Program-made: the position numbers and the translations under genes
From: Escherichia phage ESSI2_ev040
Length of the DNA stretch: 30,597 nucleotides
Sequence record: NC_049393.1
Reading direction: 5' to 3' (one strand)
Notes under the pieces: generated by a model
Databases searched by the model: none
Seen by the model: the letters and a program-made list of their open reading frames with translations, nothing else
Told to the model about the DNA's origin: nothing
Part shown: piece after piece, positions 9,625 to 29,341 of the stretch
Position numbering within the stretch: the stretch's first letter is position 1
Layout of the letters: every line of letters begins with the position of its first letter

Positions 9625-9907
9625 TCATACTCTCTCTTAAATTAATTTCGTCCACTAATTGATTATGACGCGCAGCGCACTGCCCATAAATTTCAGGATA
9701 AATTGTCAGTAATTCCGCTGCGTCTTTTCCTGTCGTACCGTTCAGGCGCGGCAGCTGCGTGGTGCATTTAGTTTTCAGGTTTTCCTGATAACGCACGCTC
9801 GGTACCGGCTGCGGCGCTGTTGTACATGCTGACAAACTCATCAGACAGACAACGATTGGTAAAAACGGGTTTAAGTATTTCCGTGCGTATCTCACGTGGT
9901 GCCACAT
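9608..9907 (-). CDS. o-spanin (Rz1-like outer-membrane lipoprotein)
   Basis: ORF in an alternative frame overlapping the 3' end of the Rz-like gene; signal-peptide-like N-terminus with lipobox LSAC; Pro-rich mature part. Confidence 0.5.
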   Translation of the reverse strand: MWHHVRYARKYLNPFLPIVVCLMSLSACTTAPQPVPSVRYQENLKTKCTTQLPRLNGTTGKDAAELLTIYPEIYGQCAARHNQLVDEINLRESMSDGTN

Positions 9908-10106
9908 TTTTTAACGCCTCCAGTTTATCTTCCAGCTCTCTGGCCGAATCACTGGCAATGCCCTGCATTACTTTTCGCGATTCATTACCGGCCACCTGCG
10001 CCGCTGTATTGATCGCCAGCTCTAAGCTGTCACGCCGCCAGTCAGCGGTCAGCCAGCCCCAGACAAACGCCAGCGCCACCACAACCAGCCACTGCCCGCT
10101 GCTCAT
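9768..10106 (-). CDS. i-spanin (Rz-like)
   Basis: 112 aa with N-terminal transmembrane segment (LVVVALAFVWGWL) and charged helical periplasmic part; follows the endolysin. Confidence 0.55.
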   Translation of the reverse strand: MSSGQWLVVVALAFVWGWLTADWRRDSLELAINTAAQVAGNESRKVMQGIASDSARELEDKLEALKNVAPREIRTEILKPVFTNRCLSDEFVSMYNSAAAGTERALSGKPEN

Positions 10107-10447
10107 CAGCGCACCCCGTTATGTTCCATGCTGAAATGATTGCCATCCGGCCTGGATTTGAAGCGCCCGCCCCAGCTGCCACCCAGTGATTCCCAGTATT
10201 CCCCCAGCGGCAGATAATCTTCCGTGCGGGTTTTATATTCGCCCTTCACGAACAGATTAAAATCCACAGCCAGACGCAGAGTGTGCAGACTGTTAGAAAT
10301 GCCGCTGCCTTTCTTCGCATTCAGCGCAGCCTGTTCTGGTGTGCGGTACGCTTCACCAAACGTCAGCCACATGCCATTTGCATTGGCATATTGAATTAAC
10401 AACGCAATCATTGATGTAAACCGTTGCTGTTTTTCACTCAGGGTCAT
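10106..10447 (-). CDS. endolysin, M15-family peptidase type
   Basis: 113 aa; H..D and terminal H motifs (SLHTLRLAVDF, GNHFSMEH) consistent with a zinc peptidase; between holin and spanins. Confidence 0.6.
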   Translation of the reverse strand: MTLSEKQQRFTSMIALLIQYANANGMWLTFGEAYRTPEQAALNAKKGSGISNSLHTLRLAVDFNLFVKGEYKTRTEDYLPLGEYWESLGGSWGGRFKSRPDGNHFSMEHNGVR

Positions 10448-10736
10448 TTGTCTTGCTCCCGTTCTGCTTTCCCGCTGCGCGTCTGCGCAGCCACACTTCC
10501 ACCGCCTGATAACCGGCTATCCCCAGCGCCGCCCCCAGCCCCTGAATGGCCAGCGGGCTGGCATCCGGGATCTGAATCAGCACCGCCCCGGCCACCACTG
10601 AAACCAGACTGCCCAGGATCACGCGACCGGCAAACAGGCGCGGCGTTATGGGGTCATTACTGGTCAGCACATTGCCGATGGCAATCAGTGCGCCAATGAT
10701 CAGCAGTGAATAAAGGCTCTTTTCATGCTCCTGCAT
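10434..10736 (-). CDS. putative holin
   Basis: 100 aa with two hydrophobic transmembrane segments and charged C-terminus, immediately upstream of the endolysin. Confidence 0.5.
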   Translation of the reverse strand: MQEHEKSLYSLLIIGALIAIGNVLTSNDPITPRLFAGRVILGSLVSVVAGAVLIQIPDASPLAIQGLGAALGIAGYQAVEVWLRRRAAGKQNGSKTNDPE

Positions 10737-10745
10737 CCCTGCCCC

Positions 10746-11201
10746 TTATCCGATCAGGTTTTCTGTGGCTTCCGCTTCCAGATACGGCACACCGTTGATG
10801 TTGACGAATTTCGGACTGGTCACGAAATATTTGATTTTGTGCGTGGTCACACCGCCACCTTTCGGATCAATATCCAGCAGGTTGCTGACCTGCAATTTAT
10901 TGCCGAACGTCTCCACCTTCATTTCTTCACTACTGGCTTTGGCATAGAAAAGAAAATCAAGTGGGGGAAGTCCGCGCCATGAACCCGCTGCGCGGGCTTT
11001 GGCTGTCAGCACCTGAAGTGTTTTTGAACTGACTTCAATTTCCCCTTCGGCGGCAACATCGCCGTCCACATACCCGTCAGGGACACCACGCGTCTGGGCG
11101 GCAGCGCTGTTATCCGTAATATCGAGCGTGATTTTCTCGATATGGATTAGATCGCCGTCCATATAGGTGTCAAACGACATACCCGAAATACGTTTGGTCA
11201 T
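10746..11201 (-). CDS. putative tail tube protein
   Basis: 151 aa directly after the sheath gene with ATGA-type overlap; size and position. Confidence 0.5.
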   Translation of the reverse strand: MTKRISGMSFDTYMDGDLIHIEKITLDITDNSAAAQTRGVPDGYVDGDVAAEGEIEVSSKTLQVLTAKARAAGSWRGLPPLDFLFYAKASSEEMKVETFGNKLQVSNLLDIDPKGGGVTTHKIKYFVTSPKFVNINGVPYLEAEATENLIG

Positions 11202-12325
11202 GCTGTGGCCTCCAGACTCGCATCCAGTAACAGACTGATGGTGATTTGCAGCGGCACTTCCCAGGTGCGCACCACAATGTAAATATCCACCGCCTTTTTG
11301 TTTTTCCAGACAATGGTCACATCACCATCCTGCGGCGGCTTCACCTCTCCCGGAAATGACACACCGTTAATGCTGGCCGCAGTGGACATTTCACGCAGTG
11401 GACGGGCAAACAGTGTCTGATGTGCGGCGATACTTCCCGGCGTGCTGTTCAGCGAGCGATCCGCGATTTTGCTGATAGCCAGCAGACGAACACGGCGGGC
11501 AGCTTTATCCGCAACGCGCAGTGTTTCAATCGACTGGTAATCACCGCCCTCAACATCCAGCGTGCGGCCATCAGCCCAGTAAAAACCGTCATAATCCGGG
11601 TACCACATCGGCACACTGAAACGCTGTGCTTCAAGCGCCTGAAGTGTGGCCAGTTCCAGCACTTCTCCGGTACCATCAACCGGCATTTCATCACTGCCCA
11701 GATTCATCAGAGCACCGGTTTTAACCCGCGCCGGACTGTCAGCAATGGTTACAGCGCGGCTACACAGGCGACCAGCCAGCACGCCCGGTTCATTTCCCCA
11801 CAGGCGGGGAACCAGCTGCACCGCCTTTTCTGCAATACCATCCTGAAGGGTGGCCATGCGTACCAGATAATCCGCCTGTGCTTCTTCATCCTGCATTCCC
11901 TGTGCGGCCAGGATGAACCACACCCAGCGGCCATACTTTGAAATCAGGGTGGATCGTAACGTCACGGCCTGATTTACCTGCGCTTTAGCGGTCACATCGT
12001 CAGACAGCACCACGCCTTCCACAGAGCACACCACCTGCGCGGCCAGAACCGCTTTCACCCAGGCATCTGCCTCCGCATCAGCTGGCAGGACGTGAATGAA
12101 CCCCCACCAGTTCTGGCCAGCGTTCGCCAGCGCAGCCAGAACATCATTTTTCAGCGGGCTGGCTTCCTCGCCCAGCAGTGAATCAAAATCACTCTGGACA
12201 TTCACCGCCAGCGTTTTCCCAACATTTTTGGTACCCGTACCGATAAACAGCAGTGTGCGTTCCACCTCATTGGTTTCACCCAACAGCTGATTTACCTGGT
12301 TTACGGTCACAATTGGCCAGGTCAT
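11198..12325 (-). CDS. putative tail sheath protein
   Basis: 375 aa, coupled to upstream and downstream genes, precedes the tube gene; by size and position. Confidence 0.55.
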   Translation of the reverse strand: MTWPIVTVNQVNQLLGETNEVERTLLFIGTGTKNVGKTLAVNVQSDFDSLLGEEASPLKNDVLAALANAGQNWWGFIHVLPADAEADAWVKAVLAAQVVCSVEGVVLSDDVTAKAQVNQAVTLRSTLISKYGRWVWFILAAQGMQDEEAQADYLVRMATLQDGIAEKAVQLVPRLWGNEPGVLAGRLCSRAVTIADSPARVKTGALMNLGSDEMPVDGTGEVLELATLQALEAQRFSVPMWYPDYDGFYWADGRTLDVEGGDYQSIETLRVADKAARRVRLLAISKIADRSLNSTPGSIAAHQTLFARPLREMSTAASINGVSFPGEVKPPQDGDVTIVWKNKKAVDIYIVVRTWEVPLQITISLLLDASLEATA

Positions 12326-13029
12326 GCTTTCCCCTTAATATCCTGCGCTTTAACGTCCCAGCCAAAGCCGATGGCCTGAAGCTGACGCGCCAGCGCCTTG
12401 TCAAATTCATCATCATTCATGCCCAGAAACACACGGGCAGGAAGATCCACTGTCCAGCTGGTTTTCACGGCTTTACCGCTGAGTTTTCGAATCAGCAGCC
12501 CCGCCTGGCTGTATGGCATCGTTTTGGTGATTTCGCCCAGTGTGGGCTTTTTCCATCGCTTACCGGTTTTCACCCGGTACCCCAGCGCCCGTAATTTTTT
12601 GGCCTGGGCAGGTGTCGCCATTTTCCCGGCCTCCGCCTTCCGTGGCTGATTACTGCGGCTGACTTTCACGCGCATTCCGTTTTGTTGCGTGTAACCCACT
12701 GTTCCGGCTGGTACCGGCGTTTCCCCGTTCCGGTATCCGCCGCCCTGCAAATAGATCCGCACAGCCTGAATTTCTGGCATTTCACGGATATGCAGCAGCT
12801 TTGGCAGGTTGCGCAGCATCTTCCCTTTGCGTTTTGTCTTACGTCCCGGCCACTTCTGGCCATCCGGGGATTCCTGATTGCGCACATGCCGTTTTGCCGC
12901 AGCAATCACGCCATATTTGGCCAGACGCCAGATCAGACGCTGCCGTTTTCTCGGCGGCAGCTCCATACTGGCCAGTGCCTTGCGCAATTCGGCCAGCTGT
13001 TTTTTATTCAGCTCGCCACCGGCAATCAT
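12322..13029 (-). CDS. phage virion morphogenesis / tail completion protein (S-like)
   Basis: 235 aa, basic Lys/Arg-rich, between the head completion and sheath genes. Confidence 0.45.
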   Translation of the reverse strand: MIAGGELNKKQLAELRKALASMELPPRKRQRLIWRLAKYGVIAAAKRHVRNQESPDGQKWPGRKTKRKGKMLRNLPKLLHIREMPEIQAVRIYLQGGGYRNGETPVPAGTVGYTQQNGMRVKVSRSNQPRKAEAGKMATPAQAKKLRALGYRVKTGKRWKKPTLGEITKTMPYSQAGLLIRKLSGKAVKTSWTVDLPARVFLGMNDDEFDKALARQLQAIGFGWDVKAQDIKGKA

Positions 13030-13532
13030 TCGCCATCCCCCACCGGCGCCCCGGCCTCATCCACGCTGTAAATACTGGCGGTCAGTGCCGTCCAGATTTC
13101 AGGCTCAACCAGTGACCATCGCTCACCCCGCCACGGAATAGCCCCGTTTTCGTCCTGCCTGATCACCAGTTCTTCCACCATCGGAACAGTCAGCACCACA
13201 GTGGCCACTTCCTCATCCTCCACCGACACATCCCAGTCCGGTTCGGCTTCACTCAGTCCCACTTCATCCAGTAGTTCCCTGTCAGCATCATCCAGCCACG
13301 CCGCCAGTAAGGACATAAGCAGCTGCGGCGGGCACAGGCGATACGGGAAACGCTCCCAGCTCAGAACCGCGTCATATCGGATCACCGCCTGGCGATATTG
13401 TCCCAGTCCGTAATCCTTCGCCGCAGGAATGAACTTCATCTCATCCAGCACACTGTCAAATGACTGCATCGCACGGGGCGGGACATTCTCTTTAAAAAAT
13501 GCGGTCAGGCTCTGGATCTGCGTCTGGCTCAT
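13026..13532 (-). CDS. hypothetical acidic phage protein (possible tail completion, R-like position)
   Basis: 168 aa, start overlaps the stop of the head completion gene; function by position only. Confidence 0.35.
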   Translation of the reverse strand: MSQTQIQSLTAFFKENVPPRAMQSFDSVLDEMKFIPAAKDYGLGQYRQAVIRYDAVLSWERFPYRLCPPQLLMSLLAAWLDDADRELLDEVGLSEAEPDWDVSVEDEEVATVVLTVPMVEELVIRQDENGAIPWRGERWSLVEPEIWTALTASIYSVDEAGAPVGDGE

Positions 13533-14032
13533 ACTTTTTTCACCGTTGCCCGTTTCAGCCCTTTCATACGGCGGATCACCACCGATGCTTCAGCCAGTAA
13601 CCCCGCACGGGTTTCCATGCTTTCCTGTCCCGGATGGGTATCACGCCGCCCGATCGTGGCAAACTCCCCCAGCAGATCCGCTTTTGCCCTGGCAAAAACG
13701 GCCTTCATATACTGGGCGCACAGGCTGTTCAGTCCGCCCATTTTTACGCCTGGTACCTCTGCCGCCAGCGTGTGGCCTTTCGCTTTCCAGCTGGTTTCCA
13801 CGTTTTCCAGCTCCGCATTCACCTCCGCCACTGCCGCAAGTAGCGCCTGGCTGATGGTGTCAGCGTCAATATCTGGCGGTAGTGACCGCTGCGCCTGAAA
13901 ATCCTTCAGATTCAGGTCTGGCCAGAATCCGTTATTGGTCAGCGGTTCATCCCGATAATCCAGCGGTTTTCCGCTAAACATAAATCCCCCGAAAAAGGCG
14001 GACTGGCCGGTTTCCACGGCGCAGTTACACAC
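13529..14032 (-). CDS. L: head completion/stabilisation protein (P2 gpL-like)
   Basis: 167 aa with FWPDLN motif recalled from P2 gpL; position after the terminase small subunit. Confidence 0.65.
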   Translation of the reverse strand: MCNCAVETGQSAFFGGFMFSGKPLDYRDEPLTNNGFWPDLNLKDFQAQRSLPPDIDADTISQALLAAVAEVNAELENVETSWKAKGHTLAAEVPGVKMGGLNSLCAQYMKAVFARAKADLLGEFATIGRRDTHPGQESMETRAGLLAEASVVIRRMKGLKRATVKKV

Positions 14033-14277: not shown

Positions 14278-14982
14278 TTAAACTCCGTTTTCGAGGCGTC
14301 GAATACGGGCGGCAATCGTCTGCCGTGTAGTCTTTACGCCAATTTTTAAGTAGTGCTTTTCTGCGATGGCCAGCAGTTGATCGGCCTTTTTCAGTGTTTC
14401 AATATCATCCACGCCCGCCGCCGTTTTCTGACCATCGTCATTGCGTAGTAACTCCAGACCGGCAAACTTGAACCATTTGGCCGTCACTTGCTCATGCAGT
14501 CGCCAGGTGTTTGCCACCCGCTCAAACGTGCGGGTGAAATAAGGCTCCACACTTTCCCCGCGCCCTGCGGTTTCCTGCGCCCATGCCAGCATCGTATCCG
14601 CCACGAAAGTGGGAAAATTGCTGCGTAACCGATCCGGGGTTGCCTGCTGCTGGCTGATAGCAATGTCAGCCCAGTCCAGCGCCTTATCCAGATCGCCCAC
14701 GTCAAACAGCCAGATAACACACCAGGCGAAAACCGGATTTGCATACACCAGGCCACTCTCCAGATAGGCTTCCACAGTGGGAACCCAGCGCGGCAACAGC
14801 ACATCGCGTTTATACTCGACGCGATCGGCGATGGTAGGCAGACTTCGAACGTGTTCCACATCCGTTTCCAGCGCCCTGATCAGCAGGTGCATACTTTCCG
14901 TGGTTTCCAGTGCCTGGCTGCGCTTCAGCTTTTGTTCCATTGCAATACGCTGGCTGTGACGCTGCGCGGGGGAAAGTGCCAT
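14278..14982 (-). CDS. M: terminase small (endonuclease) subunit, P2 gpM-like
   Basis: 234 aa immediately after the major capsid gene in P2 O-N-M-L order. Confidence 0.75.
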   Translation of the reverse strand: MALSPAQRHSQRIAMEQKLKRSQALETTESMHLLIRALETDVEHVRSLPTIADRVEYKRDVLLPRWVPTVEAYLESGLVYANPVFAWCVIWLFDVGDLDKALDWADIAISQQQATPDRLRSNFPTFVADTMLAWAQETAGRGESVEPYFTRTFERVANTWRLHEQVTAKWFKFAGLELLRNDDGQKTAAGVDDIETLKKADQLLAIAEKHYLKIGVKTTRQTIAARIRRLENGV

Positions 14983-14985
14983 TTA

Positions 14986-16023
14986 TCAGCCCTCCACCGG
15001 TTCGGAGACTTTGCCGATTGTCACAGCGGATTCATCAATGGCCGCATACAGCTCCGGCACTTCCACCGCGTAACCTTCATTGCGCAGGTATTTGTTTTCG
15101 AACTGCTTACGATCTTCAACAAACTCCGCCTTACGCATACGGGTATTGCGCTGGGTGTAGATGTGCAGATTAGAAAGCGGCGTCACTACCATGCGTTTAC
15201 CCGGCATAAACGGCGGGATAATGGCCTGACGGCCAGCAATGGTGCTTCCCAGCATTTGCGCAGCAATTTTTTCAGTCGGACGGTCTGCTGCCTGATACAG
15301 TCGATACTGTTCAGCAGCGACCAGATCGGCACCGACCAGGACAACCAGACGCGGGTCATTGCGGAACTGCGCCGGGATTTTGGCGTTAATCAGATCGGAC
15401 GCCATTGCATCCAGTGACTTGTAATCCCCGGCCTCATCGAGCACCACGGGATCGGTCATAATCTGATTGCCACCCAGCAGCGTTTTCATTCGCTCATGCC
15501 AGCCGACGTTCACATCTTCGCCGTTCGGGTTAGCTTCGGGATCAGTGGTTTTTGCGCGGCTTTTACCGTTAAAACCAATACGCAGCATATCCAGTGCAAA
15601 AGCCTGCGTGGTGAATGCCTGGACAAGGTTGAAAAACTCGTTTTCATCCTTACCCGCATTTGCCCAGACAGAAAGCAGATCCCAGCGCAACGCGGCGCAG
15701 CTGTCTGTCTCAACCAGCGAATAGTCATTACCGTCAACACCCACACGACGAATAAAACGGCCATTTTCGCTGCGGCCGGTATGCAGCACGGAGGAACCGA
15801 CAGAGATCACCTGGCCACTCAACTGGTCAACATCCAGACAGGTGATCATGTTCAGGAACTCGACGGACTCCAGCAACGCAAGACGCAGCGCATTTTCCTG
15901 CGGGTCATTCAGGGAAAAATAACGACTGGTATCACGTGCGCCAAAATGCTGCGCCATTCCCGCCGAATATTTATCCAGTAAATCCCGCGCACGATTATTA
16001 AGGTGCATAAAACTCCCTCGCAA
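14986..16023 (-). CDS. N: major capsid protein, P2 gpN-like
   Basis: 345 aa, P2-family capsid size and position between scaffold and small terminase. Confidence 0.85.
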   Translation of the reverse strand: MRGSFMHLNNRARDLLDKYSAGMAQHFGARDTSRYFSLNDPQENALRLALLESVEFLNMITCLDVDQLSGQVISVGSSVLHTGRSENGRFIRRVGVDGNDYSLVETDSCAALRWDLLSVWANAGKDENEFFNLVQAFTTQAFALDMLRIGFNGKSRAKTTDPEANPNGEDVNVGWHERMKTLLGGNQIMTDPVVLDEAGDYKSLDAMASDLINAKIPAQFRNDPRLVVLVGADLVAAEQYRLYQAADRPTEKIAAQMLGSTIAGRQAIIPPFMPGKRMVVTPLSNLHIYTQRNTRMRKAEFVEDRKQFENKYLRNEGYAVEVPELYAAIDESAVTIGKVSEPVEG

Positions 16024-16071
16024 TTAAGCGATATATAAAATTTATTCTGGGCTAATCAGCGTTAAAGCGAA

Positions 16072-16872
16072 TTACAGAAAATTATATTTCCCTGCTTTTT
16101 CTGAAATTTTACGCCCCGGTGAACGGGTATTCTTATTACCCAGATCGTTAAAGCGGGTTACGATTTCTTTCGCATTATCACGAATGGTCGCAAACTCTTC
16201 CGTGTCCACAACTTCAACAATAGTATCCACATCTTCCTGAACAGTGCTCAGTTGTGTTTCAATTGCCCCCACTCGCGCTTCCAGATCGTTAACAGCATTC
16301 GCAAGCGCCTGCAATTTATCATCACCCTGCTGCGTATCATCCTGCTGACCTTCGCTTTCAAACTTTGGCTTAATGCCAAATAAATGGTGCCAGGTTTTTT
16401 TCATCAGTTCTTCCTGCTTAATTTTTCCGTCACGGGAAATTACGCAACTGTAATATCCCTGTTTTGATAGTCTGCGCCGACTAAAGCGCAACCGTGTAGT
16501 GCCCACACTGGCGGGATTGTCCGTTACGGCCAGTCCGCCCAGATACGTTCGCTCACCTCCGCGCCAGTTAAGTTCTGGCTCAACAGAGAAATAAAGCAAC
16601 TGCCCTTCATCATTGGCATACAACAGGCGCTTGTTAGGACACAGGCTCACATATAATCGTGCCAGCCCATCTTCCCCGTCCTGCCACATCGCCTTTAGCA
16701 CTTCGCCAAAATTACCGGCATATCGTTCATGTTCAGGCCAGATTAGTGCGGCGTAATGGGTGACATCATAGGTTTCCCCCATGTCAATAATCCATTGCCG
16801 TTCCATGACCCTGCCATCAACCGTATCGCCTTCTGTGGCAACACACAGCCAGTCAGTTTTTAAATGCGACAT
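16072..16872 (-). CDS. O: capsid scaffolding protein, P2 gpO-like
   Basis: 266 aa with acidic coiled C-terminal part; divergent from the P/Q genes as in P2; AGGGGGG RBS before ATG 16872. Confidence 0.85.
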   Translation of the reverse strand: MSHLKTDWLCVATEGDTVDGRVMERQWIIDMGETYDVTHYAALIWPEHERYAGNFGEVLKAMWQDGEDGLARLYVSLCPNKRLLYANDEGQLLYFSVEPELNWRGGERTYLGGLAVTDNPASVGTTRLRFSRRRLSKQGYYSCVISRDGKIKQEELMKKTWHHLFGIKPKFESEGQQDDTQQGDDKLQALANAVNDLEARVGAIETQLSTVQEDVDTIVEVVDTEEFATIRDNAKEIVTRFNDLGNKNTRSPGRKISEKAGKYNFL

Positions 16873-17034
16873 ATCCCCCCTGATTTATTCACTGACCCTG
16901 CGAACTCAATTATTGCCAAATAAAACTGCCGCTGCATTACGCTTTATTCTGAACAGTTCGGTTATAACGCTTTACCGAACAGAGACGAATTAACACCACC
17001 GTTTTTTCATTACAGCCACGGCATAATTATCCGC
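16873..17034. promoter_or_regulatory. divergent late promoter region between the scaffold and terminase genes, with 7-bp inverted repeat GTTCGGT-N11-ACCGAAC at 16956-16980
   Basis: Intergenic region between divergent late operons; perfect inverted repeat seen directly; analogy to Ogr/B/Delta-activated P2/186 late promoters. Confidence 0.45.
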
Positions 17035-18810
17035 ATGGCTAAATACTCTGAAGAATTAAAAGGCGTTGTTCGCGCACTTTATCTGCGCCGCTATACGCCA
17101 AAGGAAATCGCATCTGAATTAAATCTGCCGAATGCGCGGATCGTTTACTACTGGGCGGAGAAATACAGCTGGGCGGATTTGCTCAGTTTTGAAAGCACAG
17201 AGGAAGCAATTGAACGCCGTTACCAGCTGCTGGCCAGCCGCGATAACAAAACCGATCTCGACCTGAAAGAAATGGACATGCTCATTGCTCATGCCACGAA
17301 ACTGCGTGCGCAGAGTAATAAACACAAAGAGAAAATGGCCAGCGGTCAGAATTCAGGGCAAGCAGCTGTGCGGGACAAGAATGACGACGAACCGCGCAGC
17401 AAACGGAAATACAAGAAAAACGATATTTCCTCGCTGACGCAGGAGGACTTTGACGCATGGGCTGAGGAACATCTTTTTGAATATCAGAAACACCTGCGCA
17501 ATAACATTGGCCAGCTTGTCAGGAATATCCTGAAAAGCCGCCAGATCGGTGCAACCTGGTATTTTGCGTTTGAAGCGTTTGAAAACGCGGTGATGACCGG
17601 CGATCCGCAAATCTTTCTGTCAGCATCAAAGGCTCAGGCTGAAGTGTTCCGGTCTTACATCGTGAATATTGCAGAGCAGTATTTCGGTATTACGCTGACC
17701 GGCAACCCGATCCGCTTAAGCAACGGCGCAGAACTGCGTTTTCTCTCCACCAACAAAAACACCGCCCAGTCCTACAGTGGCCACCTGTACTGTGACGAAT
17801 ATTTCTGGGTGCCAAACTTTGCAAAACTTAACGAAGTGGCCAGCGCAATGGCCACACATGACAAGTGGCGCACCACCTATTTTTCAACGCCATCGGCAAA
17901 AACGCACCAGGCGTACCCGTTCTGGACGGGCGATGAGTGGAAACAGGGCAGTAAAAAACGTGCGGCCATTAAATTTCCGTCCTTTAACGAAATGCGTGAC
18001 GGCGGGCGACTCTGCCCGGATGGGCAATGGCGCTACGTCATTACGATGGAAGATGCCATTGCAGGCGGTTTCAACCTGGCAAACATCGAAAAGCTTCGCA
18101 ACCGCTACAACGACGCCACTTTTAACATGCTCTATATGTGCGTGTTCGTTGACAGCAAAGATTCCGTTTTCAGCTTTTCCGACCTGGAAGCCTGCGGCGT
18201 TGAAGTCGACACCTGGCAGGATCACAACCCTGATGCAGCCCGTCCATTCGGTGACAGGGCAGTGTGGGGCGGCTTTGACCCGGCTCGCAGCGGGGATTTG
18301 TCCTGTTTTGTCATCATCGCCCCGCCGATGCTCGCCGTGGAGAAGTTCCGCGTTCTGAAGGTGATTTACTGGAAAGGCATGAACTTCCGGTACCAGGCAA
18401 AACAGATCGAGCAGTTGTTCAAAAAATATAACTTCACTTATCTGGGGGTGGACGTTACCGGCATTGGCCAGGGTGTTTTTGACAACATTCAGCATTTTGC
18501 CATGCGTGTGGCCGTCCCTATTCGTTACGACCTGAACACCAAAAATAAGCTGGTACTGAAAGCGGTGGATGTGGTGGAAAGCCAGCGTATTGAGTGGGAT
18601 AAAAACCTGAAAGAGATCGCGGCCAGCTTTATGTCTGTGCGCCGAACCACCACACAAAGCGGCAACGCCATGACGTTTGTCGCTGACCGCAGCCAGGATA
18701 CCGGCCACGCAGAGGCATTCTGGGCGATTACCCACGGTCTGCATAACGAACCCCTTAACTATGAAAACAAACCGAAATCCCGCTGGGGTGTAAGGAAAGA
18801 GGCAGCATGA
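17035..18810 (+). CDS. P: terminase large (ATPase) subunit, P2 gpP-like
   Basis: 591 aa; P2-like P then Q order; ATGA overlap with the portal gene. Confidence 0.9.
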   Translation: MAKYSEELKGVVRALYLRRYTPKEIASELNLPNARIVYYWAEKYSWADLLSFESTEEAIERRYQLLASRDNKTDLDLKEMDMLIAHATKLRAQSNKHKEKMASGQNSGQAAVRDKNDDEPRSKRKYKKNDISSLTQEDFDAWAEEHLFEYQKHLRNNIGQLVRNILKSRQIGATWYFAFEAFENAVMTGDPQIFLSASKAQAEVFRSYIVNIAEQYFGITLTGNPIRLSNGAELRFLSTNKNTAQSYSGHLYCDEYFWVPNFAKLNEVASAMATHDKWRTTYFSTPSAKTHQAYPFWTGDEWKQGSKKRAAIKFPSFNEMRDGGRLCPDGQWRYVITMEDAIAGGFNLANIEKLRNRYNDATFNMLYMCVFVDSKDSVFSFSDLEACGVEVDTWQDHNPDAARPFGDRAVWGGFDPARSGDLSCFVIIAPPMLAVEKFRVLKVIYWKGMNFRYQAKQIEQLFKKYNFTYLGVDVTGIGQGVFDNIQHFAMRVAVPIRYDLNTKNKLVLKAVDVVESQRIEWDKNLKEIAASFMSVRRTTTQSGNAMTFVADRSQDTGHAEAFWAITHGLHNEPLNYENKPKSRWGVRKEAA

Positions 18811-19868
18811 GTAAAAAGAAACGCTTTGTTAAGCGCGACCAGCGCGGCGACAAATCAAAAAAGATGAGCATTATCACATTCGGCAAACCTGAACCGGTTC
18901 TGACTACCGGCACAGATTACCGTGATATCTGGTACGACAATGCCGCCGATCACTTCACCCAGCCGATTGACCGGCTGGCACTCGCACAACTGATTAATCT
19001 TAACGGTCAGCACGGCGGCATCATTCACGCCCGTAAAAACATGATTGTTTCAGACTACCAGGGGGGCGGGCTTATTCACGACCAGCTGGAAGCGGCAGCG
19101 TTTGACTATATAACCTTTGGGGATATTGCGATTGCCAAAATTCGTAACGGCTGGGGCGATGTGATCGCACTTGAACCCTTGCCCGGTCTGTATATTCGCC
19201 GCCGCAAAGTCAGAGATAACGCGCTGGATAAGCCCGGCGACTACGTGGTGTTACAGGAAGGGGAACCACAGGTATGGCCAGAAGAAGATATTATCTTCAT
19301 CAAAATGTATGACCCGCAACAGCATATCTACGGACTGCCGGACTACATCGGCGGTGTGCATTCCGCGTTACTTAACAGTGAAGCGGTCATTTTCCGACGC
19401 CGCTATTACCACAACGGTGCGCACACTGGCGGTATTCTTTATACCCGCGATCCCAGCATGACGGACGAAATGGAGGAAGAAATTGAACAGCAGCTGCGTG
19501 ACAGCAAAGGGATCGGTAACTTCTCCACCATCCTTGTAAACATTCCTGGTGGAGACGGTGACGCCATCAAATTCATTGAAATGGGGGATATTTCCGCGAA
19601 GGATGAATTTGCCAACATCAAAAACATCAGCGCCCAGGACATTCTGAACGCGCACCGTTTCCCTGCTGGCCTCGCCGGTATTGTTCCGCAGAACACTGCC
19701 GGACTGGGGGATGTTGAAAAGGCTGAACGCATTTACAAGAAAAGCGAAATAGCCCCCATCCAGCGCCGTTTCATGCTGGCCGTTAACAACGATCCCGAAA
19801 TACCGGAAAGGCTACACCTTAACTTTGATTTAAGTTACACAGAATCAACGGATAAGGGTGCGGCATGA
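18807..19868 (+). CDS. Q: portal protein, P2 gpQ-like
   Basis: 353 aa, directly coupled to the terminase large subunit. Confidence 0.9.
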   Translation: MSKKKRFVKRDQRGDKSKKMSIITFGKPEPVLTTGTDYRDIWYDNAADHFTQPIDRLALAQLINLNGQHGGIIHARKNMIVSDYQGGGLIHDQLEAAAFDYITFGDIAIAKIRNGWGDVIALEPLPGLYIRRRKVRDNALDKPGDYVVLQEGEPQVWPEEDIIFIKMYDPQQHIYGLPDYIGGVHSALLNSEAVIFRRRYYHNGAHTGGILYTRDPSMTDEMEEEIEQQLRDSKGIGNFSTILVNIPGGDGDAIKFIEMGDISAKDEFANIKNISAQDILNAHRFPAGLAGIVPQNTAGLGDVEKAERIYKKSEIAPIQRRFMLAVNNDPEIPERLHLNFDLSYTESTDKGAA

Positions 19869-19918
19869 GGCGAAACAGGCTAAAATCCAGGCATCATTTA
19901 ACAGCTGGAGCATGGAAT

Positions 19919-20188
19919 ATGCGAGTTCTGAAAATCGAATGCCCGGAATGCGGCTCAAAGGCTGTTATTCGTAAAACGAACAGGAAGCACCGGCAGATTG
20001 CGGATATTTACTGCGCCTGTTCAGATGTTGAGTGTGGCCATACGTTTGTTATGAATCTGACGTTCTCCCACACTCTCAGCCCCAGCGCTAAAACGGGTGA
20101 TGCGATGGTGCAAAAAATACTGAATGCACTTTCACCCGATCAGCGCCAGATGGCATTAGACCTATTGAAAGCGACTCCCGCCGCCTGA
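19919..20188 (+). CDS. ogr: Ogr/Delta-family zinc-finger late transcription activator (track ORF starts 19865 with ATGA overlap to Q; ATG 19919 has a GGAG RBS)
   Basis: CPECG...(about 20 aa)...YCACSDVECGHTF matches the C-x2-C / C-x4-C Ogr/Delta zinc-finger pattern. Confidence 0.7.
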   Translation: MRVLKIECPECGSKAVIRKTNRKHRQIADIYCACSDVECGHTFVMNLTFSHTLSPSAKTGDAMVQKILNALSPDQRQMALDLLKATPAA

Positions 20189-20192
20189 AATG

Positions 20193-20217
20193 CCCCCATT
20201 ACTGGGGGTTTTGTTTT
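20193..20217 (+). terminator. rho-independent terminator after the ogr-like gene
   Basis: Stem CCCCCA/TGGGGG with 4-nt loop followed by TTTTGTTTT, starting 5 nt after the stop. Confidence 0.7.
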
Positions 20218-20495
20218 CATACTCATCAAGCTTACTTTCCAGATCTGAAGTCAGTTCGCTCAGCCAGGCAAGTGCTATGTCTTTCTCACAGCCGGTGCAA
20301 TTACTTTTAGCTATAAGCCTTGTAAACAACGCAATCCGCTGCAATGCGATAGTTTCCAAAAACAAATCCTGCACAAGCATCCTCCCAAAAACAGAATAAC
20401 TGTATATAAACACAGTATACATTTAAGCACAAAATGTGAAAGTGCTTTTTCCTGCCATCTACTGACAAATGAATGCCTTTCACATACTTACACCA

Positions 20496-22517
20496 CTACA
20501 ACCACCCCGGCCACAGCTCCTGTAATGGCTCGTTTTGAGTCTCTTTAAGCCGCCCGTTGCGGTATATCAGTGCGCCCTGACCAAATATCAAACCACTACC
20601 CCGCAGGAGAATGGCTATTTCTTCATCAGAACCATCAAAACCCCGACTGCGTAATTCCAGTTTTAACCGTCTGCGGGTTCCCCCCTCCGTACAGTTATTG
20701 ACAGAACTCCAAGGGGCGGCGTTGCCGCCAGAAAACCCCGCCTCCGCTGGCGCTTCGGCCAACTTCGCAACCTTTTGCCACTTAACCAGACGGGTGCAAA
20801 CTTCTGAATCAGGAACCAAAGGAGAATAAACACCCTGTACGCGCTGCACGTCCTCCGCGTATTCGTTGCCTTGTTCCGTAATTTCATAGGCCAGACGAAC
20901 AACCAGATCTCGGCGGGCAACCAGTGCACCTCCCTGCGCCTGGGTATATGCAGCCCAGTCCCCGACATCAGCAGCGGCCAGAACCGCATCCATTCTGCGA
21001 TCTGTCAGTACCTGATCCCGCAAACGACGCAGCTCACGCCAGACGGTTACCGGCGCACCACCAATCTGCTGAAACTGGCGAATACGCCAGCGTGAAGCCC
21101 ACGCGGAAACGGACTTAGCCATATCACGCAGGTTTTCGCCGGTTTCTTCGTCCTGCTCACCATCCAGCGCAAAACCATCAATATTTTTTGAAATGTATTT
21201 CGCGATGTAGCCCGTGGCCGAACCTTTGGCGGGATCGATAGCTTCAACATGAAAACGCGCCTTCAGCGCCTTTTCAGATTGCAGTTCTTCAGAATCGGTA
21301 ATTCTGGCGTGATAGCAAAGAATATCGCGTACCGTGTCCACGTCCTGCGGACGCATAAAAAGCAACATATGCCAGTGCGGTGTCCCGTCATGGTGAGGCT
21401 CAACAACCCGAAACCCAAAGACATGAATACCCGCACGCGAGATCGCTGCGCGTGCTTTTGCCCATACGCCGCATAAATAGCGCTGGGTATCCTGCGGCGT
21501 ACATCCATCCCATTGCGATACAAAGCCACCTTTGCTGTGTACTGCGTGGAAACGTGATGGCGCAGTGATGGTGTAAAACTCACCGGCCAGCCCTTCTTCA
21601 TTGGCCATATCTTCAAACCCCCGCATTCTTACCATTAGTTCACATCGACGGATCGCCGGATTTGCAACGCTGCGGTGCACCATGCTGTCCAGTGCAATGC
21701 GCAGCCCCTCATCATTCAGCAGATCAAACTTTTTAAAGAACTCCAGATTCCGCTTTTTCTGGTCTATCCATTCGCCCAGTGTTTTGCGGGATACATAAGC
21801 GCTGGCCGCTTTTTGTACCTGTCCCACCGCGATGGCCATATGTTCGCGCTGTGTATCACGCGCACGTTTAAGACGCAGGTACCACCATTCTGGCGCCATC
21901 ATGCGCAGTATCCCTGATTCCGCCTTACGCATTTCCAGTTGGCCTTCATTGGCTTCGTGTTCAGCCCAGTACGGCGGCTGGTTATTCAGCATCAGGCAAC
22001 ACGCACAAAGATGGCGGTATGATTCCAGGGTGCGGCGGTGCAGCTCTCTGGCGTCGTCAGTGCCGGAATCAAACTGTTCGGTGAAGTCATAAAGTGACTG
22101 GGAAATCCAGCCAGATACCTGGCCAGCCAGTTTTTTAAGATCAGGACGGTCCAGTGACGGCAAGCGCTCCAGCGACTTACCAAAAGGAAGATCAGCAGCG
22201 TCAGCGGCCAGCGAGTAACGCGCAGCCACTTTGCGCAGACGTGGCAATACACTCCCGCCGATAGTCTGGCGCAGGAATGTATTGGCACGGCGACGCCCGT
22301 CACGACCAGCAAACAGCTTTTCGTAACGACGGCCAAAATACCCGGCTAACCAGTCGGGTATCTCATGAAGGTACTGTGAGCGCCATTCGTAATCCTGCGG
22401 GTTAACCGCCCACAGGCGGCGCTCGGTGATCGTGGCGTCTGTAGGCGTACCCGGTGCGAACGTTTCACGCCGCCAGGTATCGACGGCGTGATGTTGGCCA
22501 TTGGCGACAGGAGTCAT
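20496..22517 (-). CDS. A: replication initiation protein (P2 gpA-like rolling-circle initiator)
   Basis: 673 aa; motif GYIAKYISKN with paired tyrosines typical of rolling-circle initiators; last gene of the early operon. Confidence 0.85.
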   Translation of the reverse strand: MTPVANGQHHAVDTWRRETFAPGTPTDATITERRLWAVNPQDYEWRSQYLHEIPDWLAGYFGRRYEKLFAGRDGRRRANTFLRQTIGGSVLPRLRKVAARYSLAADAADLPFGKSLERLPSLDRPDLKKLAGQVSGWISQSLYDFTEQFDSGTDDARELHRRTLESYRHLCACCLMLNNQPPYWAEHEANEGQLEMRKAESGILRMMAPEWWYLRLKRARDTQREHMAIAVGQVQKAASAYVSRKTLGEWIDQKKRNLEFFKKFDLLNDEGLRIALDSMVHRSVANPAIRRCELMVRMRGFEDMANEEGLAGEFYTITAPSRFHAVHSKGGFVSQWDGCTPQDTQRYLCGVWAKARAAISRAGIHVFGFRVVEPHHDGTPHWHMLLFMRPQDVDTVRDILCYHARITDSEELQSEKALKARFHVEAIDPAKGSATGYIAKYISKNIDGFALDGEQDEETGENLRDMAKSVSAWASRWRIRQFQQIGGAPVTVWRELRRLRDQVLTDRRMDAVLAAADVGDWAAYTQAQGGALVARRDLVVRLAYEITEQGNEYAEDVQRVQGVYSPLVPDSEVCTRLVKWQKVAKLAEAPAEAGFSGGNAAPWSSVNNCTEGGTRRRLKLELRSRGFDGSDEEIAILLRGSGLIFGQGALIYRNGRLKETQNEPLQELWPGWL

Positions 22518-25633: not shown

Positions 25634-26137
25634 TCACATCAGGCCGGTGGCGTTGGTAGTGACCAGATCCACCGCAGCGGCCAGAACAGGCGCAGAGTGA
25701 ATACGGCTTTCAACGGTATAAGCCAGCACGGATAAGCTACGGATTGCATCGCGGGCACGATCCAGAATTTGAGTACGGCGGGCGGCGGTCATATGGCCAG
25801 TTGATACGGCTTCCCCAGCAATCGCGCCCACACACGCAGTAGCGCTCAACGCGCAAAATTGCATGTTGGCTTCAGTGGCGTTATTGACTGGAACGGAGGG
25901 CAAGCAGTTAATCTGCCCCAGCATCCCATCAAGCAAACGAGCATCTTCCGTGTAATCGGTGATAGCCAGCAGCTCGTCACAGGTCAGGCGGTGCGGTTGA
26001 ACCGGGTTCAACTTATTGCGCAGGATCTGCGGACGCATACCAACGGCAGCGGCCACATCTTCCAGATTGTGCGACAGCGCAAACGCTCGGCAAGCTGCAT
26101 CAAAATGTGCATGTTTGGAAGTTTGGTAATCAAACAT
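25634..26137 (-). CDS. cII: CII-like lysogeny establishment activator (186 CII family)
   Basis: N-terminus MFDYQTSKHAHFDAACRAF...LRNKLNP resembles 186 CII as recalled; ATG 26137 with GAGGG RBS (track start 26146 is GTG). Confidence 0.7.
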   Translation of the reverse strand: MFDYQTSKHAHFDAACRAFALSHNLEDVAAAVGMRPQILRNKLNPVQPHRLTCDELLAITDYTEDARLLDGMLGQINCLPSVPVNNATEANMQFCALSATACVGAIAGEAVSTGHMTAARRTQILDRARDAIRSLSVLAYTVESRIHSAPVLAAAVDLVTTNATGLM

Positions 26138-26169
26138 AGTCAGCACCCTCTCTGCGTTTCAAAATCGAA

Positions 26170-26391
26170 TCAGTTAAGTACGATGTTGCAACCCGCGAGG
26201 GCGTCTATGGTCAGAGCCGCGATATTGATCATGACTTTTTCACGCCCCATATCTTTGCGAAGGCGGTGACGAGGCAAGCGGCCATCTTTCAACATCGCGT
26301 CAACGGTATCTTCTGGTAAACCAGTGAGTTCGATGTATTTATCTTTTGAGATAGAAGGGACGGGTAGATTGATTGAAATGTTAGTGGTCAT
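26170..26391 (-). CDS. apl: Apl/Cox-family excisionase and switch regulator
   Basis: 73 aa with HTH-like segment YIELTGLPEDTVDAMLKDGRLP; first gene of the early operon, divergent from cI. Confidence 0.55.
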   Translation of the reverse strand: MTTNISINLPVPSISKDKYIELTGLPEDTVDAMLKDGRLPRHRLRKDMGREKVMINIAALTIDALAGCNIVLN

Positions 26392-26526
26392 AGTGCAAGA
26401 TTCCTCGCTTGGAAGTTAACCGTGGCTAGCGGTGTTAAAAGGTGAACAACCTGTTTTGGAATGTTCGCCTGCAAAATAACTTTCCAAATGCGAAGTGTCA
26501 ACCAATAACTTTCCCGAGGCGGAATT
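26392..26526. promoter_or_regulatory. lysis-lysogeny switch region between apl and cI, with direct repeats AATAACTTTCC at 26475-26485 and 26504-26514
   Basis: Intergenic region between divergent apl and cI; 11-bp direct repeats and TTTTGGAA/TTCCAAA imperfect inverted repeat seen directly. Confidence 0.55.
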
Positions 26527-27147
26527 ATGGATCTCAAAAACGGAGGCCAGGCAGTTATAACCAGGCTCCTTGAAGCTTATGGATTTAAGACAAGGCAGGC
26601 TTTATGCGACCAATTGAAAGTATCAACAAGCACCATGGGAACGAGATGGATGCGTGATGTATTCCCAGCTGACTGGGTTATACAGTGCACAATCGAAACT
26701 GGTGCATCAGTAGAATGGCTATCGTTCGGAACAGGCGAGAAATTTCCCAACGGAACCAGCAAAAACGCAAATGAGAATGAAAATTCCGCAAATGAGAACT
26801 TGTTAGGTGATGTTGTTTCTGTTACCCGAAAAAAGGTAATAGATGGAAATTTATACGATTCTAATTTTTACATGCTCGACAAAGCCATGCTCCCATCCCA
26901 CCTCAGCAAACCCATTATTATTGTGGATGATGATGTCAGCTACTTAGCCGAGCAGAAAAATGATGAATTAACAGACGGTACATGGCTTGTTGAAATTGAA
27001 GGGCAAGTGAGCATAAAAGAGCTAATACGCATTCCAGTAGGCAGGGTTCGTGTAACCTCAGTGCCTGGTAGCGCTAGTTTTGAGTGCGGTATTGATGACT
27101 TAAAACCTATCGCAAAATGCCACTACTACCTGCTGACAGATGTTTGA
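26527..27147 (+). CDS. cI: CI immunity repressor (186 CI family)
   Basis: N-terminal LLEAYGF and ETGASVEWLSFGTGE motifs resemble the 186 CI repressor N-terminal domain; upstream of int on the same strand as in 186. Confidence 0.8.
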   Translation: MDLKNGGQAVITRLLEAYGFKTRQALCDQLKVSTSTMGTRWMRDVFPADWVIQCTIETGASVEWLSFGTGEKFPNGTSKNANENENSANENLLGDVVSVTRKKVIDGNLYDSNFYMLDKAMLPSHLSKPIIIVDDDVSYLAEQKNDELTDGTWLVEIEGQVSIKELIRIPVGRVRVTSVPGSASFECGIDDLKPIAKCHYYLLTDV

Positions 27148-27225
27148 TCGAGAGTGAAACAAACATTGACACTGTATAAATAAACAGTGAATCATACCCC
27201 TATAGCAAGTAATAAGGGGTATTGA

Positions 27226-28275
27226 ATGGCTATTCGTAAACTTGAAACGGGTAAATGGCTCTGTGAATGCTACCCTTCCGGACGTTCTGGGCGCAGGGTA
27301 CGAAAACAATTTGCAACCAAAGGTGAGGCAATGGCCTTTGAGCGCCACACAATGGATGAAGCCGCGTCTAAACCCTGGCTGGGGGATGTTGTTGATCGCC
27401 GCTCTTTAAAAGACATTGTAAACCTCTGGTATAAACTGCATGGCATATCTCTTACGGCTGGCGAACACGTATATGAAAAACTACTGCTGATCGTGGACGC
27501 ACTAGGAAACCCTCTGGCTACATCGCTAACCCCAAAAATGTTTGCTCATTACCGCGATAAACGCCTAACCGGAGAGATTTATTTCAGCGAAAAATGGAAG
27601 AATGGCGCTAGCCCTGTAACGGTTAATCTTGAGCAAAGTTATTTAAGCGGTGCCTTTAGTGAACTGATTCGCTTGGGTGAATGGCTTCAGCCAAACCCTC
27701 TTGAAAACATGCGAAAATTTACCATTGCTGAAAAGGAAATGGCCTGGCTGACACATGAACAGATTGCTGAACTTCTGTATGACTGCCAGCGTCAGAACAA
27801 GCTGTTGACGCTGGTTGTGAAGATTTGCCTCAGTACAGGGGCAAGGTGGAGAGAGGCCGTCAATCTGACAAGGTCTCAGGTAACGAAGTACCGCATCACT
27901 TTCACCAGAACGAAGGGAAAGAAAAACAGAAGCATCCCTATCAGCAAGGAGCTATATGAAGAGATCACCGTGCTGAAGGGGTTTAAGTTTTTTGATGATT
28001 ACTATTTTCAATTTGCATCAGTGATGGATAAAACTTCCATCATTCTGCCGCGAGGCCAGCTAACGCACGTTCTTCGCCACACCTTTGCTGCTCACTTTAT
28101 GATGTCCGGAGGAAACATACTCGCCCTTCAAAAAATACTGGGGCACCACGATATAAAAATGACTATGCGCTATGCCCACCTCGCGCCAGATCACCTTGAA
28201 ACTGCGTTAAGGTTTAACCCCTTAGCTACTATGCAAAATGGCGACAAAATGGCGGCAGCGGTTGCCACTCCCTAA
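27226..28275 (+). CDS. int: tyrosine integrase (P2/186-type)
   Basis: 349 aa; C-terminal catalytic region with HVLRHTFA and HHDIKMTMRYAHL (conserved His/Arg/Tyr). Confidence 0.9.
   Translation: MAIRKLETGKWLCECYPSGRSGRRVRKQFATKGEAMAFERHTMDEAASKPWLGDVVDRRSLKDIVNLWYKLHGISLTAGEHVYEKLLLIVDALGNPLATSLTPKMFAHYRDKRLTGEIYFSEKWKNGASPVTVNLEQSYLSGAFSELIRLGEWLQPNPLENMRKFTIAEKEMAWLTHEQIAELLYDCQRQNKLLTLVVKICLSTGARWREAVNLTRSQVTKYRITFTRTKGKKNRSIPISKELYEEITVLKGFKFFDDYYFQFASVMDKTSIILPRGQLTHVLRHTFAAHFMMSGGNILALQKILGHHDIKMTMRYAHLAPDHLETALRFNPLATMQNGDKMAAAVATP
28239..28260 (+). repeat. 22-bp direct repeat copy 1 (TGGCGACAAAATGGCGGCAGCG) inside the int 3' end; copy 2 at 28422-28443
   Basis: 21/22 identity between the two copies, seen directly. 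Confidence 0.8.
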
Positions 28276-28337
28276 CCTTTAATACTCCTAACTACTCTTT
28301 TAACTTATTGAGTTTAAAGCAAGTAATTGTTTTTCCT

Positions 28338-28366
28338 AACCCATTTATATAAATGGGTTTTTTGTT
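28338..28366 (+). terminator. rho-independent terminator after int
   Basis: Perfect 22-nt palindrome AACCCATTTATATAAATGGGTT followed by TTTTTTGTT. Confidence 0.7.
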
Positions 28367-28421
28367 GCCTGTTATATTAGTCTCTTAAAACCAACCACTT
28401 ACCCCCTCTCACTAAAGCCAT

Positions 28422-28443
28422 TGGCGACAAAATGGCGACAGCG
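28422..28443 (+). repeat. 22-bp direct repeat copy 2 (TGGCGACAAAATGGCGACAGCG) spanning the Abi_C-like ORF start
   Basis: 21/22 identity to 28239-28260; candidate att core or recombination scar. Confidence 0.8.
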
Positions 28444-29286: not shown

Positions 29287-29341
29287 CTACATGTTAGACA
29301 ACATGTTTTTCAGTTTTGAAATTATGTCATCTTCTATGAAT

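Follow-up and report, generated by a model that had tools for sequence, protein, structure and literature searches.

Among the closest described systems to the locus considered here are the late control modules of phages P2 and 186; what is said of their transcription is taken from the features annotated in NC_001895 and NC_001317. In both phages, the activator (Ogr in P2, B in 186) is a small CX2C-X22-CX4C protein whose gene immediately follows the end of a late operon, F...D, and has its own −10 element 31-34 nt before the start codon (TAAAAT in P2); the terminator after ogr or B is annotated as serving the late operon too. A single activator site of the form TGT-N12-ACA, at −55, lies between divergent head-gene promoters, and in P2 the one annotated site serves both pO and pP. 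P2 proper (Peduovirus) carries its tail genes in the operons V-W-J-I-H-G and FI-FII-E-T-U-D, with ogr after D and cos after Q, cosL lying 187 nt beyond Q in NC_001895. In HP1, cos adjoins attP and int (PMC2771037), and placement of ogr after the portal gene has already been described in K139 (PMC8537503).

The window, by which we mean the whole 30,597-nt stretch of Escherichia phage ESSI2_ev040 (NC_049393.1) that was analysed, contains the following genes around the portal gene:

14278-14982, minus strand: M (Pfam Phage_term_smal)
14986-16023, minus strand: N (Pfam Phage_cap_P2)
16072-16872, minus strand: O (Pfam Phage_GPO)
17035-18810, plus strand: P, gpP-like large terminase subunit (Pfam Terminase_6N, Terminase_6C and Terminase_5)
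18807-19868, plus strand: Q, gpQ-like portal protein (Pfam Phage_portal)
19919-20188 (89 aa) or 19865-20188 (107 aa), plus strand: Ogr/Delta-family zinc-finger gene (Pfam Ogr_Delta)

The minus-strand genes O, N and M diverge from P and Q, and P, Q and the Ogr/Delta gene are arranged head to tail, the start of Q overlapping the stop of P as ATGA. HP1 orf16 and P2 P share 52% and 43% identity, respectively, with the P protein; for the Q protein, identity is 49% with HP1 orf15 and 33% with P2 Q. The tail genes run L, R, S, sheath (DUF2586), tube (Phage_HP1_Orf24), holin, lysin and Rz/Rz1, followed by chaperone, tape measure, DUF2590, J, I, fibre, assembly protein, HP1_ORF34 and spike. This is the HP1-type late order (L-R-S-sheath-tube-lysis-chaperone-tape measure-baseplate-fibre-orf33-35), with the Pfam families HP1_Orf24, HP1_ORF34, DUF2586 and DUF2590 all present. 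By tblastn, the late region proves to be collinear with HP1 from Q to orf35 (orf15-orf35, matches over HP1 14726-32157) at 26-60% amino-acid identity, while tblastn of the tail genes against P2 and 186 gave matches only for the holin and for the C-terminal part of the fibre-assembly protein. The layout of P2 proper is absent, as ogr follows Q and neither the P2 tail genes nor P2 cos find a match.

Comparison with deposited genomes places the phage within a known group. Positions 16873-20500 are 100% identical to Escherichia phage ESSI2_ev015 (NC_049395.1; genus Quadragintavirus), and identity to that phage over window positions 19-25438 is 98.6%; the two differ in the immunity/integrase module (26137-29487), where their CI proteins are 39% and their Apl proteins 44% identical. 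Gene order throughout the whole genome is that of Cronobacter phage ESSI-2 and Yersinia phage vB_YenM_324, the run of P, Q, regulator, small ORF and A included; compared with this group, the window has different morons in the interval from int to the tail spike gene. The window belongs to a P2-family phage whose virion genes are of HP1 type and whose immunity switch is of the 186 type. The region is probably, taking lineage, layout and the late-control mechanism proposed below as one joint judgement, the rightward late operon and late-gene activator of an HP1-type phage in the P2 family (Peduoviridae; ESSI-2/Quadragintavirus group).

The first-pass annotation had described a mosaic of P2-order head genes, a 186-like switch, a tail order unlike that of P2 and an Ogr-like gene after Q. 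Each of these elements is present, the tail order being that of HP1, but the description, though right, is of nothing unusual: the layout is standard for the lineage and already known, common to HP1, K139 and the ESSI-2 group, and is therefore real but ordinary. The same annotation would have taken a gene order identical to that of a characterised phage as evidence against it, and the collinearity with ESSI-2, vB_YenM_324 and, in the late region, HP1 is evidence of this kind. With a sequence already deposited for another phage and a layout that is shared, the region itself adds little. Modestly useful by-products of the comparison are the observation that the activator gene of the HP1 group is absent or wrongly started in several reference records, a candidate promoter for this gene, and a single candidate activator site in a lineage for which we found no experimental study of late control.

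The order P, Q, ogr-like gene occurs in 40 of 53 genomic loci and is also that of K139/kappa, HP2, HP1 and phiO18P, so that the post-portal placement matches published relatives and is not new. In HP1 and HP2, 81-260 nt separate Q from the ogr-like gene, and this gap lacks the upstream open frame seen here; both records leave the gene unannotated, and the HP1 copy is frameshifted. The earlier statement that the Ogr/Delta gene sits where P2 has cos is correct, as P2 cosL lies just beyond Q and a search of the entire window with the P2 cos sequence, allowing up to 3 mismatches, gave no match. After Q there is neither room for cos nor a P2 cos match, and a candidate lies elsewhere:

29596-29700, no strand assigned: probable cos region (the record ends of ESSI-2 and ESSI2_ev015 map to either side)

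The ESSI-2 record bears a 15-nt terminal repeat, GCGGGTGCGGTGTAG, and a Nextera adapter artefact at 29632-29665 interrupts the region in the window. Cos is therefore probably found on the int/attP side, at about 29600-29700, rather than beside Q, as in HP1.

The divergent head genes are separated by a conserved intergenic region with these elements:

16873-17034, no strand assigned: divergent late control region between O and P (162-nt gap)
16909-16914, minus strand: predicted −10 AATAAT of the late promoter of O-N-M-L-tail (54-55 nt from the dyad centre in relatives)
16957-16979, no strand assigned: dyad TTCGGTTATAACGCTTTACCGAA, candidate site of the Ogr-like activator (unique in the window, conserved)
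17022-17027, plus strand: predicted −10 CATAAT of the late promoter of P-Q(-ogr) (GCATAAT kept in relatives)

A scan of the 162-nt gap revealed no consensus sigma-70 promoter, and the same scan over 16700-20700 returned no site against 4.5 expected, the promoters proposed here all falling below its threshold. The layout of the gap is kept in 43 related loci. The dyad TTCGG-N13-CCGAA occurs in the window once, within this gap; enterobacterial relatives carry it as TTCGG(A/T)TA...CCGAA, and K139, HP2 and phiO18P as TTCGGAT...ATCCGAA. In nearly all relatives, the dyad centre lies 53-55 nt from a −10-like hexamer on each side, including the GCATAAT of the P promoter, which has a poor −35 (CCGTTT). 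CATAAT ends 7 nt before the P ATG, and the P mRNA may consequently have little or no leader. The P2 late-promoter site TGT-N12-ACA has five matches in the window, no more than expected by chance, and none in the O-P gap, where the conserved dyad occupies the equivalent place. These observations make the dyad a candidate binding site of the Ogr-like activator, common to both late promoters; as the gap has no TGT-N12-ACA, the pairing of dyad and activator is drawn solely from position and conservation. A single site between divergent head-gene promoters would be shared with P2 and 186, while the candidate itself differs from theirs in sequence and in being centred near −66 instead of −55.

We propose a model for late control in which the product of the Ogr/Delta gene next to Q acts as the activator by binding the single dyad (16957-16979) midway between two divergent promoters without a −35 element, the leftward one driving the O-N-M-L-tail-lysis genes and the rightward one P-Q. 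The activator gene would at first depend on a weak promoter of its own, in the 50-nt spacer between Q and ogr (−10 at 19879-19886, predicted transcript start near 19893), with translation from the ATG at 19919, downstream of GGAG. With late transcription on, P-Q transcripts would run through ogr to the terminator at 20192-20219, and this read-through would let the activator reinforce its own synthesis. The logic of P2 (D-ogr) and 186 (D-B) would in this way have been moved to the end of the P-Q operon, the operon carrying the activator being P-Q here and F...D in those phages; such a move would be possible because cos adjoins the int/attP region in this lineage.

The proposed early promoter lies in the junction between Q and ogr:

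19865-19918, plus strand: optional 18-codon upstream extension (open frame in 36 of 36 unique relatives)
19879-19886, plus strand: predicted ogr −10, G(−14)-N-TAAAAT (kept in 35 of 36 unique relatives)
19907-19910, plus strand: Shine-Dalgarno GGAG (8 nt upstream of the ATG at 19919, read from the sequence)

Comparison of this 54-nt junction across 36 unique relatives, which form 10 clusters at <80% identity, revealed G-N-TAAAAT, GGA and the ATG at 19919 as its invariant elements (the GGA of the Shine-Dalgarno being nearly so) and no codon periodicity. The hexamer is that of the annotated −10 of P2 ogr (TAAAATG), and its distance from the ATG is 32 nt, compared with 34 nt for P2 ogr and 31 nt for 186 pB; its −35 is poor (GTGCGG). 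The position equivalent to 19919 is the start in HP2, K139, phiO18P, P2 Ogr and 186 B alike, and RefSeq NC_049395 places the start of the identical gene there too; in HP2, K139 and phiO18P the gene is preceded by an untranslated gap of 56-260 nt. The conserved motifs, the match to the P2 −10 and the starts of distant homologues together make an independent ogr promoter and an internal start at 19919 likely. No copy of the O-P dyad, which would be a sign of autoactivation at this promoter, lies upstream of ogr. An inverted repeat at 19820-19837 (TAACTT-N6-AAGTTA) was dropped since it is not conserved among relatives.

Beyond the activator gene lies a single element:

20192-20219, plus strand: intrinsic terminator ending the P-Q-ogr unit, GCCCCCATTACTGGGGGT then TTTGTTTT (terminator scan)

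A hairpin followed by a T tract after the ogr stop is found in 13 of 18 lineage representatives, while the scan detected no terminator between Q and ogr, the 50-nt spacer having no hairpin with a T tract. The lack of a terminator at the Q-ogr boundary and the conserved one after ogr make late read-through from Q, and hence positive feedback, plausible; a terminator shared with the late operon would be a further likeness to the P2 and 186 modules, whose D-ogr and D-B arrangements already provide a precedent for the feedback idea. The activator gene could instead be a fully independent unit, transcribed only from its own promoter with neither read-through nor feedback. The conserved −10, Shine-Dalgarno and ATG fit such a unit, as does HP2, with a strong extended −10 (TGATATAAT) in its 81-nt gap after Q, but a spacer empty of terminator signals, a conserved terminator only after ogr and the analogous P2/186 terminator annotated as ending the late operon as well render this reading improbable. 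The first-pass annotation had, on condition that the upstream start is used, placed ogr in the late operon that it activates, with positive feedback, and had set against this an independent promoter and start with no read-through. Its feedback holds as plausible and the lack of read-through finds no support, but the comparative evidence favours a promoter of the gene's own and the start at 19919, with possible use of the upstream one.

That upstream start is the first ATG of the frame (19865-19867), which, as had been noticed, overlaps the Q stop TGA (19866-19868) as ATGA, an overlap of open frame and preceding stop codon that P2 and 186 do not have. Of 36 unique relatives, 35 have a start codon at the Q stop or close by (as ATGA, TAATG, TGATG, TTGA or GTGA), and the frame is always open, although a frame-0 stop would be expected in the extension in 28% of column-resampled and 67% of shuffled sequences. 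The long form is annotated in Yersinia and Salmonella phage records. These facts, with the absence of a terminator between the genes, would suit the model put forward in the first-pass annotation, in which the only product is a 107-aa activator initiated at the ATGA, translationally coupled to Q and lacking its own promoter. That model is nonetheless very doubtful, as a gene activating its own sole promoter would have no way to start. The extension also lacks codon periodicity (entropy 1.04/1.08/1.27, against 0.36/0.13/1.17 in the core), and its invariant positions are the pattern of a −10, a Shine-Dalgarno and a start codon; across relatives, the invariant TAAAAT fixes rare codons (CTA/ATA), with AAG never appearing in the overlapping frame. 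HP2, K139 and phiO18P, with their 56-260-nt gaps, start at the equivalent of 19919, and in the Photorhabdus and Ewingella relatives the overlap is lost, the ATG lying 16 nt upstream of the Q stop.

Under the favoured arrangement, with an own promoter and a start at 19919, the ATGA start may also be used to give a longer isoform. It is conceivable, though we consider it unlikely, that two forms of the activator arise from two transcripts: 89 aa from its own promoter early, and 107 aa from late read-through, the latter made by termination-reinitiation at the Q stop and lengthened at its N-terminus by a basic stretch of 18 residues. Retention of the start codon, and of a frame open in every case, across about 10 divergent lineages is compatible with this possibility; if true, the activator would change form once the late programme is running.

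Assignment of the zinc-finger protein to the Ogr/Delta family is unambiguous from its sequence. ORF 19865-20188 matches Pfam Ogr_Delta (PF04606) across the whole domain (profile positions 1-47 of 47; E=9e-20, 70.8 bits, cutoff 26.3) and phrog_603 (transcriptional regulator; 2e-40). In alignment with P2 Ogr, 186 B, HP2, K139 and phiO18P, CX2C-X22-CX4C (C8, C11, C34 and C39) is invariant, and the 89 aa from the conserved start fall within the family's size of about 70-90 aa. Low identity to P2 Ogr and 186 B (22%; BLASTP to P2 Ogr only E=3e-4), the missing P2-type binding site and a weak, sub-threshold match to Pfam Lar_restr_allev could be taken to mean that the protein has a Lar-like or DNA-binding accessory role while another factor activates the late genes, but the whole-domain match far above threshold, the invariant cysteines and spacing, the lack of a second Ogr/B homologue in the genome by profile and tblastn comparisons, and a late-operon linkage kept across Enterobacterales, Vibrio, Aeromonas and Haemophilus phages leave that reading with very little probability.

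The immunity region has the 186-type architecture, as the first-pass annotation had recognised: CI (Phage_CI_repr, PF07022, with Phage_CI_C, PF16452) faces a Cox/Apl-like gene (phrog_575), followed by CII (Phage_CP76, PF06892) and a Phage_186_Fil homologue (PF10893), with cI divergent from apl. These four families and an exonuclease are shared with 186, at low identity (CI 29%, CII 44%), while HP1 and HP2 have no 186-type CII or Fil. In 186, the B-type activator gene is next to int and pB has CI sites; the activator gene of the window is not next to int, and nothing similar to those sites is evident at the Q-ogr junction. No CI-operator-like word of at least 8 nt is common to the switch region and the junction, and a phage with a CI of just 39% identity carries the same junction sequence, which weighs somewhat against direct repression of the activator promoter by CI. 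The product of the small ORF after A (phrog_698) has no detectable similarity to Tum by tblastn. Its gene occupies the position of 186 tum and is preceded by a perfect LexA box, TACTGTGTTTATATACAGT (20399-20417), which is kept in 26 of 40 relatives.

Six-frame ORF prediction combined with Pfam and PHROG scans identified the window as a nearly complete P2-family phage genome with the following layout:

15-9624, minus strand, tail spike to tape measure
9608-10736, minus strand, lysis genes
10746-12325, minus strand, tube and sheath
12322-14032, minus strand, S/R/L
14278-16872, minus strand, head genes M, N and O
17035-18810, plus strand, P (large terminase subunit)
18807-19868, plus strand, Q (portal)
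ending at 20188, plus strand, Ogr/Delta zinc-finger ORF (ogr)
up to 26391, minus strand, early operon: A (20496-22517), dam, exonuclease, fil, cII, apl
26527-27147, plus strand, cI
27226-28275, plus strand, int

The observations of the first-pass annotation were confirmed, while its interpretation was supported only in part. Pfam bore out P2-type head genes in P2 order, the ORF following Q matched Ogr_Delta (9e-20), and its first ATG shares bases with the Q stop in the ATGA overlap described. The tail order is indeed unlike that of P2, with HP1-type families (Phage_HP1_Orf24, HP1_ORF34, DUF2586, DUF2590) arranged as in HP1, and the 186-type switch is represented by CI, CII and Fil of 186 type along with a Cox/Apl-like protein.

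The 41 window proteins were compared by tblastn with P2, 186, HP1, Cronobacter phage ESSI-2 and Yersinia phage vB_YenM_324. HP1 gave collinear matches (26–60% identity) for every tail and baseplate protein, whereas for these proteins hits in P2 or 186 were limited to the holin and the C-terminal part of the fibre-assembly protein. The head proteins are also nearer to HP1 than to P2 (52% versus 43% identity for P, 49% versus 33% for Q), while 186 is the closest match for cII, fil, the exonuclease and int. ESSI-2 and vB_YenM_324 are collinear with the window across the whole genome, so the gene order is not novel. The proposed mosaic is therefore real with respect to the textbook phages, yet several recognised Peduoviridae genera share it as their fixed architecture.

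The placement of an ogr-like gene after the portal gene is likewise already known, having been reported for K139 (PMC8537503). Homologues of the 89-aa ogr protein were found by tblastn in 142 phage records, and the portal gene lies immediately 5' of the ogr relative in 40 of 53 genomic loci. In kappa/K139, HP2 and phiO18P the homologue directly follows the portal gene, with the replication operon convergent to it; in HP1 it is an unannotated, frameshifted ORF (NC_001697.1, 10447-10635, minus strand). The HP1 frame is broken near codon 15 by a one-base difference from HP2, attributable either to faulty sequencing or to a genuine HP1c1 mutation. The HP2 locus (4998-5260) is, as in HP1, absent from the reference annotation. 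About ten close homologues in Xenorhabdus genomes (69–75% identity) have no portal gene upstream and may belong to satellites or other prophage types.

The ATGA start, if used, had been proposed to place ogr within the late operon it activates, creating positive feedback. An independent promoter and start are supported by the 54-nt junction between the Q stop and ATG 19919, which was aligned across 36 unique relatives (10 clusters at <80% identity, Escherichia to Xenorhabdus). Invariant positions are G 19879, TAAAAT 19881-19886, GGA 19907-19909, AA 19916-19917 and ATG 19919; the remaining junction lacks codon periodicity (entropy by codon position 1.04/1.08/1.27, versus 0.36/0.13/1.17 for the first 50 codons of the frame from ATG 19919). 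In the upstream frame TAAAAT imposes CTA, TTA, GTA or ATA, then AAA-T; enterobacteria seldom use CTA and ATA, and the constraint is therefore on the DNA rather than on a peptide. The candidate -10 lies 32 nt 5' of ATG 19919, compared with 34 nt for the annotated P2 ogr -10 (TAAAATG), 31 nt for the 186 pB -10 relative to the B start, and ~35 nt for TGATATAAT in HP1/HP2. The equivalent of 19919 aligns with the start in all distant homologues, P2 Ogr and 186 B, and is the RefSeq start of the identical gene in Escherichia phage ESSI2_ev015 (ev015). The upstream start may nevertheless be used as well, on read-through RNA: its frame is open in all 36 relatives (28% of column-resampled and 67% of shuffled sequences would be expected to contain a stop), and 35 of them retain a start codon at the Q stop or next to it, as ATGA, TAATG, TGATG, TTGA or GTGA.

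A terminator scan found no hairpin with a T tract between Q and ogr, and a strong terminator directly 3' of ogr (20192-20209 plus TTTGTTTT); 13 of 18 lineage representatives have an equivalent 3' of the ogr stop. In the P2 record the terminator is described as "for ogr transcript and F operon", and in the 186 record tB is said to terminate "pB and late promoter". The family therefore has an established arrangement in which the activator gene closes a late operon, is preceded by its own promoter in a short spacer and shares the operon's terminator; here the gene is joined to P-Q, whereas in the P2/186-type layout it is joined to F...D.

With cos located elsewhere in this lineage, the position after Q is left open for ogr. 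The HP1 record has cosL, attP and int inside its first 1.7 kb. Mapped onto the window, the ends of the ESSI-2 and ev015 records flank 29623-29666, and ESSI-2 carries a 15-nt terminal repeat, GCGGGTGCGGTGTAG, at the matching point. Embedded in the contig exactly there (29632-29665) is TCGTCGGCAGCGTCAGATGTGTATAAGAGACAG, an Illumina Nextera adapter (Tn5 mosaic end). The adapter is an assembly artefact; since it coincides with the record termini, its site is probably a physical DNA end (cos). The same adapter is present in the ev015 record (NC_049395.1, nt 13-48).

Direct repression of ogr by CI, as at 186 pB, appears unlikely from sequence comparison, since the Q-ogr junction and the switch region share no 8-mer or longer word and the junction is identical in ev015 despite CI proteins of only 39% identity.

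The O-P gap contains the sole TTCGG-N13-CCGAA dyad in the window (16957-16979), kept in all enterobacterial relatives and present as TTCGGAT...ATCCGAA in K139, HP2 and phiO18P. On each side a conserved -10-like hexamer is found 53–55 nt from the dyad centre, independent of gap length:

17022-17027, plus strand, -10-like hexamer CATAAT
16914-16909, minus strand, -10-like hexamer AATAAT

The dyad would thus serve, from near -66, both of a pair of divergent promoters without a -35 element; pO and pP of P2 share a single annotated site, at about -55. The P2-type TGT-N12-ACA was not found in the gap, which fits the divergence of the ogr protein, only 22% identical to P2 Ogr. The predicted CATAAT -10 is separated from the P start codon by 7 nt and a Shine-Dalgarno sequence is absent, so the P mRNA may be leaderless in the Escherichia/Cronobacter group. 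In Xenorhabdus relatives P has a leader of ~40 nt; in P2 the annotated V-operon start coincides with the first base of V.

TACTGTGTTTATATACAGT (20399-20417) is a perfect LexA box 5' of a small minus-strand ORF (20162-20374, or to 20422; phrog_698). This ORF comes after A and is convergent with ogr, whose 3' end and terminator it overlaps. An exact CTGT-N8-ACAG box occurs at the matching place in 26 of 40 relatives. In 186 this position is occupied by tum; no similarity to Tum was found in the product, which is possibly the SOS-induction gene of the lineage. A second LexA-like palindrome, CACTGTATAAATAAACAGTG (27170-27189), differs from TACTGT-N8-ACAGT at one position and falls within the 78-nt cI-int gap.

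The ESSI2_ev group comprises temperate coliphages that come from faecal viromes of infants and are relatives of ESSI-2 (PMC6969025). The window is 100% identical to ev015 over 16873-20500 and 98.6% identical as a whole over 19-25438, but the immunity and integrase modules differ. From this pattern the window looks like the product of module exchange, probably a heteroimmune sibling of ev015. The differing segments are 26137-29487 (immunity/integrase) and 29700-30597, the rest being 98.6% identical, and they include cargo genes:

28432-29286, cargo ORF of 284 aa
29969-30523, cargo ORF, hexapeptide acetyltransferase-like
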